From IMG/VR virus record IMGVR_UViG_2711768015_000009: 6,737 nt of DNA. One strand, given 5' to 3'. A program made the position numbers and the translations under genes. Below are positions 1 through 6,591 of the stretch, piece by piece. Position 1 is the stretch's first letter, and each line of letters begins with the position of its first letter. The notes under the pieces were generated by a model that saw nothing but the letters and a program-made list of their open reading frames with translations, searched no databases and was not told the DNA's origin. This stretch comes from a virus (Duplodnaviria; Heunggongvirae; Uroviricota; Caudoviricetes).

Positions 1-146
1 GGAATACATTGAGATTTTCTACAATCGTCAGCGTCGTCACTCTCGTCTGGGGAATATCTCCCCGGCAGCCTTCAGGGAAAAATATCATCAGATGGCTGCT
101 TAAAAAAAGAACAAATGGTAGTGTCCGCTATTGCCAGTACACCTCA
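1..146 (+). mobile_element. 3' terminus of an IS3-family insertion sequence (transposase C-terminal codons plus terminal inverted repeat ending ...GCCAGTACACCTCA)
   Basis: Positions 1-146 are the exact reverse complement of 6592-6737. The end reads 5'-TG...CA-3' in IS orientation (TGAGGTGTACTGGCAATAGCGGACAC...), and the CAATAGxGGACAC core resembles IS3-group inverted repeats as recalled from memory. Identity diverges immediately outside position 146. Confidence 0.75.
2..103 (+). CDS. IS3-family transposase (OrfB-type) C-terminal fragment
   Basis: Frame starting at position 2 translates to EYIEIFYNRQRRHSRLGNISPAAFREKYHQMAA*, with TAA at 101-103. The motif 'FYNRxRRHSxLG..SP..F' is the conserved C-terminus of IS3-family DDE transposases. 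The gene body lies outside the window. Confidence 0.75.
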   Translation, partial: EYIEIFYNRQRRHSRLGNISPAAFREKYHQMAA

Positions 147-345
147 TCCATCACCGAAAAAAATTGGCTTTTACACCATTGGCGATAAAAGCATTTACCT
201 GTATGACCTACGCCGCATGGATGAAATCATGGAGGCTCTTGATAATCGTTCGTCGATGGATTGGTGTGTTGCTGTTCATGATATGAATGCAGGGTTTGAT
301 GAAAAGATTTTGTTCCCCTCATCAGTTGAAAGCACTGCGGGTTAA
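147..345 (+). pseudogene. 3' fragment of a phage gene apparently truncated by the IS insertion (hypothetical protein C-terminus)
   Basis: Frame 1 is open from inside the IS across the 146/147 boundary to TAA at 343-345 (...PSPKKIGFYTIGDKSIYLYDLRRMDEIMEALDNRSSMDWCVAVHDMNAGFDEKILFPSSVESTAG*). The N-terminal extension of track ORF 115-345 lies in IS sequence, so the native start is missing. The next gene follows 10 nt later with a strong Shine-Dalgarno, so this looks like operon context. Confidence 0.35.
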
Positions 346-355
346 GGAGTAACAC

Positions 356-523
356 ATGACCACTATTACCAAAGAACGTATTGAATTGTTCATTAAAAAC
401 CCGCTTGAAAACGGGCTTACCCGTGGTGAACAAATGGAACTGGCACGGATTGCGCTGGCATCGCTGGAAGCAGAGCCGGTTGTGTTCTGGTTTGAAAAAT
501 ATCAAGAAGGGGCTACGGCATGA
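356..523 (+). CDS. hypothetical small acidic protein (55 aa)
   Basis: ATG at 356 is preceded by AAGGAG (345-350). Translation is [55 protein letters not shown]. It is below the 60-aa cutoff of the ORF track. Its stop overlaps the next start (ATGA at 520-523). Confidence 0.55.
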
Positions 524-864
524 CGACTTTTACCAGAGAGCAGTTAATAGCTCACGCAGAGGAGACTATTGAAGCACAGAGACTGTGCATACCGGGCACA
601 ATCGACCATGACATCATCCGCACATATAAGATGGATATTGCTGTTCTGGAAATCGCACTGGTATCGCTGGCAGCAGAGCCAGCCGGTAAATTGCATGAAT
701 ACAAACCAGTGGGATATCAGCGTCTGGTCGATGAGTTAACCATGCTGGTAAAGCAGTTAACCTGGCAACTGAGGAAAGCGAAGCCAGACTGCAAATTACC
801 GGATAAGGCGATGAGTTATCTGGAGCGGAACGGACTGATAAGCGTGGAGGATATTTTACGATGA
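520..864 (+). CDS. hypothetical protein (114 aa), paralogous to the upstream 55-aa ORF
   Basis: ATG at 520 overlaps the upstream stop. It shares the N-terminus MTT(I/F)T(K/R)E(R/Q)(I/L) and the motif (I)AL(A/V)SL(E/A)AEP with the 55-aa ORF. Its stop TGA at 862-864 overlaps the next ATG at 861. Confidence 0.6.
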
Positions 865-944
865 CCTGGCCTGAAGCATTAACAACGGTAGGAATTGCGA
901 TGGCGGTGGCGCTGGTGGTGTATTCGATTTGCCGCTGGGGATAA
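861..944 (+). CDS. predicted small hydrophobic (membrane) peptide, 27 aa
   Basis: ATG at 861 is in an ATGA overlap with the upstream stop, suggesting translational coupling. Translation is [27 protein letters not shown], with one hydrophobic helix-length segment. There is no independent support beyond the coupling. Confidence 0.35.
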
Positions 945-951
945 AAACGGT

Positions 952-986
952 TTGCGGGAAAAGGAGAGTTAAGTAGAATTGCAGCG
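952..986 (+). promoter_or_regulatory. candidate sigma70 promoter and start of hok mRNA
   Basis: -35-like TTGCGG (952-957), 16-nt spacer, -10 TAGAAT (974-979). The downstream sequence GGGTGCTTGAGGCTATCTGTCTCAGG forms the 5' hairpin expected of hok-family mRNA leaders. Confidence 0.4.
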
Positions 987-1039
987 GGTGCTTGAGGCTA
1001 TCTGTCTCAGGCATGAACACCAAAAGGCAGATAGAGAAA

Positions 1040-1106
1040 AGCCCCAGTTAACATTACGCGTCCGGCAAGACGCTTAACATTAATCTGAGGCTCAATCTAT
1101 GAACGG
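1040..1106 (-). ncRNA. sok: predicted Sok-like antisense RNA of the hok/mok locus (boundaries approximate)
   Basis: On the minus strand there is a promoter-like pair: -35 TTGCCT (complement of 1137-1142), 17-nt spacer, -10 TAACCT (complement of 1114-1119). It is oriented to transcribe antisense across the mok start and Shine-Dalgarno region, as in characterised hok/sok loci. The 3' end is not clearly defined by a canonical terminator. Confidence 0.4.
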
Positions 1107-1311
1107 CAAATCTAGGTTAGCCTCTTACGTGCCGAAAGGCAAGGAGAAGCAGGCTATGAAGCAGCAAAAGGCGATGTTAATCGCCCTGATCGTCATCTGT
1201 TTAACCGTCATAGTGACGGCACTGGTAACGAGGAAAGACCTCTGCGAGGTACGAATTCGAACCGGCCAGACGGAGGTCGCTGTCTTCACAGCTTACGAAC
1301 CTGAGGAGTAA
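1099..1311 (+). CDS. mok: Mok-like reading frame (in-frame N-terminal extension of hok, as in chromosomal mokC/hokC-type loci)
   Basis: ATG at 1099 is in frame with hok (MNGKSRLASYVPKGKEKQA-MKQQKAM...). The leader region aligns by eye with the plasmid R1 hok/mok leader as recalled from memory (TAGCCTCTTAC...GCAAGGAGAAG.AGGC.ATGAA). Confidence 0.5.
   Translation: MNGKSRLASYVPKGKEKQAMKQQKAMLIALIVICLTVIVTALVTRKDLCEVRIRTGQTEVAVFTAYEPEE
1156..1311 (+). CDS. hok: Hok/Gef-family type I toxin (51 aa membrane peptide)
   Basis: Translation is MKQQKAMLIALIVICLTVIVTALVTRKDLCEVRIRTGQTEVAVFTAYEPEE*. This is near-identical in pattern to Gef/HokC and HokD as recalled from memory. Shine-Dalgarno AAGGAG lies at 1141-1146. 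Confidence 0.9.
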   Translation: MKQQKAMLIALIVICLTVIVTALVTRKDLCEVRIRTGQTEVAVFTAYEPEE

Positions 1312-1380
1312 GAGACCAGGCGGGGGAGAAATCCCTCGCCACCTCTGATGGGGCAGGCATCCTCAATGCACCCACACTTA

Positions 1381-1410
1381 ACCCGCTTCGGCGGGTTTTT
1401 GTTTTTATTT
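1381..1410 (+). terminator. rho-independent terminator at the 3' end of hok mRNA
   Basis: Hairpin ACCCGC-TTCG-GCGGGT (1381-1396) followed by a T-rich tract TTTTTGTTTTTATTTT. Confidence 0.7.
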
Positions 1411-1419
1411 TCAACGCGT

Positions 1420-1449
1420 TTGAAGTTTTAGATGGTGCCGGAATAGAAT
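1420..1449 (+). promoter_or_regulatory. candidate sigma70 promoter for the downstream ORF cluster
   Basis: -35 TTGAAG (1420-1425), 18-nt spacer, -10 TAGAAT (1444-1449). Found by pattern only. Confidence 0.3.
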
Positions 1450-1531
1450 CAAAAATACTTAAGTAGCGCGCAGGGAGAAGAGGGATGGACCCCGAACAGG
1501 GGAGTGCTATTTATCTGGAAGGATTCTGTTG

Positions 1532-5773: not shown

Positions 5774-6098
5774 NNNNNNNNNNNNNNNNNNNNNNNNNNN
5801 NNNNNNNNNNNNNNNNNNNNNNNNNNNNNNNNNNNNNNNNNNNNNNNNNNNNNNNNNNNNNNNNNNNNNNNNNNNNNNNNNNNNNNNNNNNNNNNNNNNN
5901 NNNNNNNNNNNNNNNNNNNNNNNNNNNNNNNNNNNNNNNNNNNNNNNNNNNNNNNNNNNNNNNNNNNNNNNNNNNNNNNNNNNNNNNNNNNNNNNNNNNN
6001 NNNNNNNNNNNNNNNNNNNNNNNNNNNNNNNNNNNNNNNNNNNNNNNNNNNNNNNNNNNNNNNNNNNNNNNNNNNNNNNNNNNNNNNNNNNNNNNNNN
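5774..6098. other. 325-nt run of N (assembly gap or masked sequence)
   Basis: Directly visible. It hides the methyltransferase 3' end and the 5' part of the tRNA. Confidence 0.95.
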
Positions 6099-6188: not shown

Positions 6189-6591
6189 AATGTCTCACAA
6201 TTCAGACGGTTGACAGTTGTCTGTTTTGCGGGGAGTTTGTTAAAAGAAACTGGCATGGTGAATCCCCCTGTGCGGAGGGGCAATCAGCGAGTAGGTATAT
6301 GGGATAATCGCGGATTCAGGTGCTGGTACTGAATTCACCGGGAGGCACCCGGCATCATGCAATGGCACATAGCGCCACTCTCCAGCCCTCTCCGGAGGGG
6401 CTTTTCTGTGCCGGATACATCACAGTTTCTGGAACCTTAGGTACTACAGTATCAGTCAGGGTGCTATATTTTCAGATGTGATGAAAGCCTGTCAGCAGGC
6501 AGGGCGTATCGGAAATGACCCAGTAGAGAAAACGTTGACTCAGATACCGGTGCTGAGTTACCGGGAAACCGGCATCACATGACCGCTATCC

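Follow-up and report, generated by a model that had tools for sequence, protein, structure and literature searches.

The Ea22 proteins of lambda and their Stx phage variants, EaA and EaE of P22 and the DUF550/DUF551 proteins are encoded by accessory early genes that occur in tandem arrays, and in the Ea proteins common N-terminal segments are joined to unrelated portable C-terminal domains. The Ea22 variants are mosaics of blocks, with DUF551 among the portable C-terminal domains (PMC10834534). A pro-lysogenic effect was reported for Ea22 (PMC7093339) and is not transferable to the two proteins, ORF1 and ORF2, described below. These are encoded side by side in a stretch of viral DNA of 6,737 nt (the whole stretch analyzed, referred to as the window) and resemble the Ea proteins both in their gene arrangement and in their modular build. 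Unlike the Ea22/DUF551 proteins, neither ORF1 nor ORF2 matched a Pfam family at E ≤ 1, the Ead_Ea22, DUF551 and DUF550 models included (longer relatives do carry DUF551); the C-terminal module of ORF2 is undescribed and ORF1 has no C-terminal domain. The position of the array differs as well, being the nin-like region in this prophage versus the stretch between exo and xis for the Ea proteins.

Enterobacterial proteins of the KdpF, AcrZ, MgtS and PmrR type are shorter than 50 aa, contain one hydrophobic helix and are often missed by annotation; small membrane proteins of these bacteria in many cases exert their effect through binding to a larger membrane protein. The product of ORF3, the third gene of the group, is similar in size and in its single helix but shows no sequence relation to them, the scores for KdpF (E = 0.12) and for the DUF883_C glycine zipper (E = 0.029) being far below the cut-offs. 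It also differs in being phage-borne and coupled to variable upstream genes. Phage small proteins have been reviewed (PMC11323111) and, judging from its sequence, ORF3 is a credible member of those that reside in the membrane. The hok/sok locus, which is adjacent to ORF3 in the window, likewise encodes a small hydrophobic peptide; it differs in forming a mosaic module of its own, with a distinct boundary, and ORF3 lies outside the Rfam sok/hok leader match.

We consider it probable that the region is the distal end of a mosaic Ea-type accessory array in a lambdoid prophage of Escherichia/Shigella and that ORF3 is an independent gene. The initial annotation had described three ORFs linked by ATGA stop/start overlaps, and these were confirmed together with both overlaps. 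The features referred to in the text are as follows:

1..147, + strand, right end of IS600 (IS3 family); the transposase C-terminus ends at 103; cuts the prophage operon upstream of ORF1
148..345, + strand, 3' part of a phrog_1714 gene (E = 5e-37), truncated by IS600
344-349, + strand, Shine-Dalgarno sequence AAGGAG of ORF1, read from the sequence
356..523, + strand, ORF1, 55 aa, Ea-type N-module plus HNH-gene tail; RefSeq WP_000207997.1, hypothetical protein
449..478, + strand, junction motif copy 1, in ORF1; recurrent motif DNA, proposed crossover point
520-523, + strand, ORF1/ORF2 ATGA overlap, read from the sequence
520..864, + strand, ORF2, 114 aa; phrog_660, E = 8e-43; RefSeq WP_000206826.1, hypothetical protein
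652..681, + strand, junction motif copy 2, in ORF2; from the alignment with relatives
846..850, + strand, Shine-Dalgarno sequence GGAGG of ORF3, inside the last codons of ORF2
861-864, + strand, ORF2/ORF3 ATGA overlap, read from the sequence
861..944, + strand, ORF3, 27 aa, conserved gene for a predicted single-pass membrane peptide
986-1161, + strand, hok leader and sok region; Rfam RF01794 sok, 112 bits
1099..1311, + strand, mok; Hok family NCBIfam matches
1156..1311, + strand, hok, part of the hok/sok locus 986..1405
1380-1405, + strand, terminator-like site, end of the hok/sok locus

Prophage setting and the IS600 end

DNA nearly identical to the window (98-99%) was found in 241 complete E. 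coli genomes, within lambdoid prophages. In the order of the prophage genes, the repressor/cro genes, the replication genes and several ead/Ea22-like genes (three in the near-identical prophages) are followed by ORF1-ORF3 and then by hokD, DUF968, RusA, the Q antiterminator, a DNA methyltransferase and tRNA genes; the downstream genes of the window are those of the 241 near-identical prophages. ORF1 and ORF2 hence lie in the accessory early region of a lambdoid/P22-like phage, in tandem with other Ea genes, and the array would occupy a nin-like stretch flanked by the replication genes on one side and by hok, DUF968, rusA and Q on the other.

In the window, the array has been severed from its own upstream part by IS600. 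Positions 1-135 were 100% identical to IS600/IS3-family transposase ends located at unrelated sites in 2903 genomes, and prophage homology began at approximately 147-148 when window 100-1450 was compared. Intact homologues of the truncated phrog_1714 gene encode 87 aa (MATLTKKEQAWL...PSPKKIGFYTIG...) in loci L052, L057 and L035, and the 76-aa ORF listed at 115..345 has its start inside the IS600 end. Because IS600 stands between ORF1-ORF3 and the early promoter of the prophage, the three genes may be silent here, their expression having possibly been lost in this particular window through the insertion.

Elsewhere in the window, positions 5774-6098 consist of 325 N, so that the DNA methyltransferase gene (4719..) is masked in its 3' part, as is the sequence that follows it. 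An Rfam match to the STnc100 sRNA (123.6 bits) was located downstream of the masked stretch, at 6224-6413. Genes for tRNA-Ile and tRNA-Arg are present just downstream in homologous prophages, and ARAGORN detected no tRNA in the window. A minus-strand ORF of 55 aa (856..1023) was rejected, as it straddles two independent modules and has no support.

Exchangeable modules of ORF1 and ORF2

The initial annotation regarded ORF1 and ORF2 as paralogues that arose via internal duplication. Their similarity is indeed beyond chance: BLASTP gave E = 1e-5 with 33% identity across the N-terminal 54 residues, the Smith-Waterman score was 56 versus 23 ± 4 for shuffled sequences (0/2000 shuffles as high), and four families, phrog_60, phrog_660, phrog_3323 and phrog_5117, were matched by both proteins. 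Each starts with an Ea-type N-module of approximately 45-50 aa that ends with IAL(A/V)SL(E/A)AEP. The duplication itself had to be abandoned. The first ~42 codons of ORF1 showed ~92% DNA identity to P22-type eaA starts, as against the mere 33% protein identity to ORF2, and window 346-482 was 89-94% identical to the starts of P22-type eaA, eaE and DUF550/DUF551 genes. Furthermore, relatives keep the C-terminal part of ORF2 on at least five different N-modules, always joined exactly at the motif. The similarity between ORF1 and ORF2 is that of a family-wide exchangeable N-module of mosaic Ea-type proteins, a helical hairpin of approximately 50 aa.

The two copies of the junction motif are identical in 25 of 29 nt. 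Many phage records contain the motif DNA (window 437-489) at 88-98% identity, with unrelated sequence on its flanks. The loci compared comprised 9 N-side and 15 C-side clusters in 23 combinations, among them P0066 (101 aa), which corresponds exactly to the ORF1 N-module followed by the C-terminal part of ORF2. In other prophages a single long gene (140-289 aa) occupies the place of the ORF1-ORF2 pair, with an ORF1- or ORF2-like N-module at its start and the ORF2 C-module or DUF551 at its end. Such replacement of the pair, either by one long gene or by the P0066 fusion, speaks against the fixed three-gene module originally proposed. From the many recombinant combinations we infer that the junction motif, conserved at the DNA level, acts as the crossover point at which modules are swapped. 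An Ea-type protein would accordingly consist of the N-module hairpin of ~50 aa with the terminal motif, optional middle modules and a C-terminal module.

ORF2 belongs to the phrog_660 family, of which it represents a minimal version with two modules. Its N-module hairpin (residues 1-54) is followed by a short disordered linker and the C-module (residues 72-114, nt 733-861). In the AlphaFold model, helices were predicted at residues 6-26 and 30-51 with pLDDT of ~90, residues 56-63 scored below 50, and the C-terminal helices (65-87, 95-103 and 109-112) were of moderate confidence. The C-module is invariant across relatives that differ in their N-terminal and middle parts, the DUF551 domain included. 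The structural searches recommended in the initial annotation gave no usable match: the PDB profile search returned generic helical hairpins alone (best E 0.026), as did Foldseek with the ORF2 model against PDB (best E 0.9). Since the latter search gave nothing, no function is transferable to ORF2.

ORF1 is a chimera in which an eaA-like N-module (residues 1-42, nt 356-481) is joined at EPV to a tail of 13-14 codons (nt ~476-523) that corresponds to the 3' end of an HNH endonuclease gene. The eaA-type homology stopped at ~482, and homology to locus L060 started at 476. In L060, the end of a Pfam-HNH endonuclease gene overlaps the start of the 114-aa gene and shares the ORF1 tail; a putative HNH endonuclease gene was also found immediately before the 114-aa-type gene in Stx phage ArgO145, and phrog_2118 (HNH) matched ORF1 residues 31-54. 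ORF1 is thus a product of recombination, its last 13-14 codons stemming from the HNH endonuclease gene that relatives carry ahead of ORF2. Among the loci compared, the ORF1-type tail was also present behind a second N-module allele; therefore, the stub form either arises repeatedly or is retained. As a separate observation, frameshifts at the first ATGA fuse ORF1 and ORF2 into proteins of 167-168 aa (P0036, P0037). Altogether, the mosaic family to which ORF1 and ORF2 belong is a known one, obscure in function, and the two are unremarkable members of it.

The 27-codon gene downstream of ORF2

Among 192 loci, 34 variants of the ORF3 DNA and 26 of its peptide were counted; each had exactly 27 codons, and peptide identity went down to ~50-60% without any change in length. 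Refutation of ORF3 had been linked in the initial annotation to a lack of frame conservation and of a synonymous-site pattern in homologous prophages; both were found. The pN/pS was 0.35 in its own frame versus 1.14 and 1.54 in the other frames, as computed from related sequences with non-independent pairwise counts, and none of 1000 column shuffles reached the observed value (null 0.88 ± 0.25). A pN/pS of this size indicates moderate, not strong, constraint.

Intactness was scored at loci picked without regard to ORF3, either hok-anchored (25) or C-module-anchored (79). ORF3 was intact in 24 and 72 of them, respectively; the remaining copies were altered by frameshifts or, in one case each, by a nonsense change, a stop loss and an in-frame insertion. 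Frameshift, nonsense or stop-loss changes concerned ~8-9% of ORF3 copies at the loci picked in this way, a decay rate about that of the neighbouring gene; ORF3 is therefore dispensable in prophages.

Several altered copies were recorded. The same 1-nt frameshift near the ORF3 start was present in L004 (3626..3736, phage vB_EcoS-689R5) and in three IMG/VR loci; in L004 the frameshifted ORF is annotated in GenBank as a 36-aa hypothetical protein. In rare fusions (P0046 and P0064, the latter with 11 member sequences; also L060 1002..1346) the 114-aa gene runs on into the ORF3 peptide owing to a frameshift or deletion, which would provide a predicted C-terminal membrane anchor. Fusions of ORF3 to DUF551 proteins, suggested by the protein-cluster listing, were rejected, since the members lack the peptide and the grouping was an artefact of partial ORFs.

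The start of ORF3 overlapped the upstream stop as ATGA in 113 of 114 copies and as TAATG in one. At least four mutually unrelated gene ends precede it: DUF551-type (...HWMPLPEPPQEVNQ), ORF2-type (...LISVEDILR), that of VT2-Sakai orf75 (...NIEQKVNQ) and those of truncated genes, a variety of contexts that again speaks against a fixed three-gene module. A GGAGG-type Shine-Dalgarno sequence before the ATG was kept in each context, the main two being ggaggatattttacgATG and caggaggtgaatcaATG. Where the upstream gene is of the DUF551 type, ORF3 is accompanied by the final four or five codons (QEVNQ) of otherwise different proteins, which suggests that the Shine-Dalgarno sequence is probably part of the small-gene module. 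In three independent locus types, 861 was precisely the position at which homology to the window started, and the edges of the module were placed at 861 and ~938-966. As ORF3 has an ATGA start and its own Shine-Dalgarno sequence, placed within the final codons of the gene before it, it is probably translated via coupling or re-initiation. The overlaps had been thought to enforce stoichiometric expression; coupled translation is what they argue for, and fixed ratios are unsupported by them. Altogether, ORF3 makes a credible, independent and conserved gene, coupled to whatever gene precedes it.

The hok/sok neighbour noticed in the initial annotation is genuine, as shown by the Rfam and NCBIfam matches listed above, and it is an independent module outside the ORF1-ORF3 operon. 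The hok gene adjoined in 53 of the 80 C-module-anchored loci; Hok was encoded within 1.5 kb in 0/80 peptide-anchored loci, where ORF3 is located after a DUF551 gene and before two small genes, xis and int. Further cases of ORF3 without hok were VT1-Sakai and PhiR5_1, where xis/int come next, and the virulent phage Av-05, and convergent genes follow it in ArgO145 and vB_EcoS-666R9. In loci without ORF3 the left boundary of the hok module was mapped at ~938-978. The idea that ORF3 is an upstream part of the hok module was rejected, as hok modules usually start at this boundary without ORF3 and all 80 peptide-anchored loci are without Hok.

A second, unrelated small hydrophobic candidate ORF was noticed directly upstream of the hok promoter in approximately 30 loci, many of them without ORF3. 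Examples are L011 1257..1346 and L074 1207..1311, with the sequences MLVLKCALAIAAVMAIYCLAVVLMDRLSD (GTG start) and MSDDISLAMEGALAVVAVVGVYCLVVFLMDRLGN; in L074, L080 and L083 the candidate stands alongside ORF3.

Full-length homologues of ORF3 (27/27 residues, 55-96% identity) were detected by tblastn in 91 phage records, including 933W, VT1-Sakai, VT2-Sakai, BP-4795 and the Vequintavirinae phage Av-05. At least 503 confirmed stretches with ORF3 were obtained in the IMG/VR scan, and with blastn 1613 of the 5426 complete E. coli genomes (~30%) were positive, single genomes having as many as seven copies; 163 of the places were on plasmids. The features annotated under the ORF3 matches in these genomes were upstream genes only. 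Both small ORFs had been supposed to be unannotated, which proved right for ORF3 and wrong for ORF1 (WP_000207997.1): ORF3 was absent from the annotation of every RefSeq record examined and sporadic in GenBank, as 'prophage protein' or 'hypothetical protein'.

When the GTDB species representatives were scanned with a degenerate DNA pattern, ORF3 was found in Escherichia and Shigella only, two tiny contigs aside. These two (L253, Xanthomonas pisi, 431 nt; L256, Acinetobacter idrijaensis, 369 nt) carry the enterobacterial DUF551-type Shine-Dalgarno context and are probably contamination. The yfdS (DUF551) region of K-12 CPS-53 was checked and contained no homologue. The Actinobacillus phage vB_Apl-pPE4 (L005, PP818812.1), with Actinobacillus pleuropneumoniae as the host on record, carries the C-module, ORF3 and hok at 92.5% DNA identity to the window, which suggests either a very recent transfer or a host/assembly mix-up.

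The hydrophobic nature of the ORF3 peptide, remarked on from the start, was borne out by a GRAVY of 1.13 and a Kyte-Doolittle mean of 2.16 for the 19-residue window from residue 6; the corresponding window averaged 2.0-2.6 in the six representative variants scored. The peptide has the form of a small membrane protein, i.e., one hydrophobic helix of ~19 or more residues with interfacial/charged flanks, and its hydrophobic core (residues 6-24) has a conserved Trp at both ends. Met1, Trp3, Pro4, Ala6, Gly11, Ala15, Arg25 and Trp26 were invariant in a nine-sequence alignment; the 26 peptide variants showed rare exceptions at positions 3, 4 and 25, with Trp3 replaced by Arg in a few. The product is predicted to form a single-pass inner-membrane helix with Trp3 and Trp26 at the interfaces. 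By the positive-inside rule its topology would be N-out, C-in, with Arg25 in the cytoplasm, and our best guess for a putative packing face is the small-xxx-small face of Gly11/Ala15.

Alternative explanations and significance

It had been proposed that the three genes constitute one dedicated toxin-antitoxin or superinfection-exclusion cassette, with paralogues and peptide in fixed stoichiometry. We find this highly improbable, despite the tight ATGA coupling of the three genes, the presence of a small hydrophobic peptide beside a type I toxin locus and the recurrence of the whole arrangement in 241 E. coli genomes. These 241 copies count as one lineage, since they are ~98% identical, and the three genes travel together only within this closely related group, whereas ORF3 is ~7 times wider (1613 genomes) and stands behind unrelated genes. 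A single gene of 101-289 aa replaces the 55 + 114 pair in relatives, and ORF1 is a recombinant stub. The PADLOC models contained no family for any of the four proteins scanned, the Pfam, NCBIfam and PADLOC scans of the ORF1, ORF2 and ORF3 proteins gave nothing above cut-off, toxin-antitoxin and defence families included, and no Hok was encoded near the peptide-anchored loci.

The toxins TisB, DinQ, Ibs and Hok resemble the ORF3 peptide in size and hydrophobicity. Combined with the frequent position of ORF3 beside hok, this likeness could point to a type I-like membrane-damaging toxin, produced late in the early operon and depolarising the cell. We regard such a role as improbable: a type I toxin would have its own transcript and an antisense RNA, and around 861-944 no promoter- or terminator-like sites beyond chance were seen, nor did any Rfam antisense RNA family match over these positions, the Rfam match starting at 986. 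ORF3 was operon-coupled to the upstream gene in 114/114 loci, showed no sequence relation to Hok or other toxin families in Pfam and NCBIfam, and reached a Kyte-Doolittle value of 2.16 versus 3.07 for Hok; its conserved small-residue face would be more typical of specific helix packing.

It also seems unlikely that the ORF3 frame is incidental, its DNA being carried along with the neighbours as a recombination linker or as hok upstream sequence. The concentration of substitutions at synonymous sites in the ORF3 frame only, matched by 0/1000 shuffles, and the zero length changes among 34 DNA variants speak against it, as do the start codon, Shine-Dalgarno sequence and overlap kept behind unrelated genes, the presence of ORF3 where hok is absent and the conserved Trp residues flanking a 19-residue hydrophobic core. 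On the other side stand the shortness of ORF3, its lack of RefSeq annotation, the copies that are frameshifted or fused to the upstream gene, and the fact that its peptide strings were not found in the searchable literature or in the supplements of the Sakai Ribo-seq paper (PMC5597208).

We therefore favour the distal end of an Ea-type array with ORF3 as a gene in its own right. As the near-invariant residues Pro4, Ala6, Gly11, Ala15, Arg25 and Trp26 include the Gly11/Ala15 face, a working mechanism is that, in the early phase of lytic growth, the ORF3 helix would pack against itself or against a membrane protein of the host.

The window offers a clear example of a short conserved motif serving as a module junction. 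ORF3 is the useful part, a RefSeq-omitted gene for a predicted membrane peptide of Shiga-toxin phages such as 933W, VT1-Sakai and VT2-Sakai and of ~30% of complete E. coli genomes; if expressed, it would be a cheap and well-defined target for phage small-protein work. Its omission also shows where annotation pipelines fall short, since genes of this small size tend to escape them. A more far-reaching idea, which we put forward tentatively and hold to be possible rather than probable, is that ORF3 defines an unrecognised family of phage-encoded inner-membrane peptides, always coupled to the last gene of the Ea array and having a specific target. The target might then be a membrane protein of the host or else the Ea protein whose synthesis immediately precedes that of ORF3. 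Besides about one in three complete E. coli genomes, the carriers of the family would include Stx phages, P1-like plasmid prophages and one virulent phage of the Vequintavirinae. If this were true, the long-mysterious Ea accessory arrays would gain a membrane-linked function.
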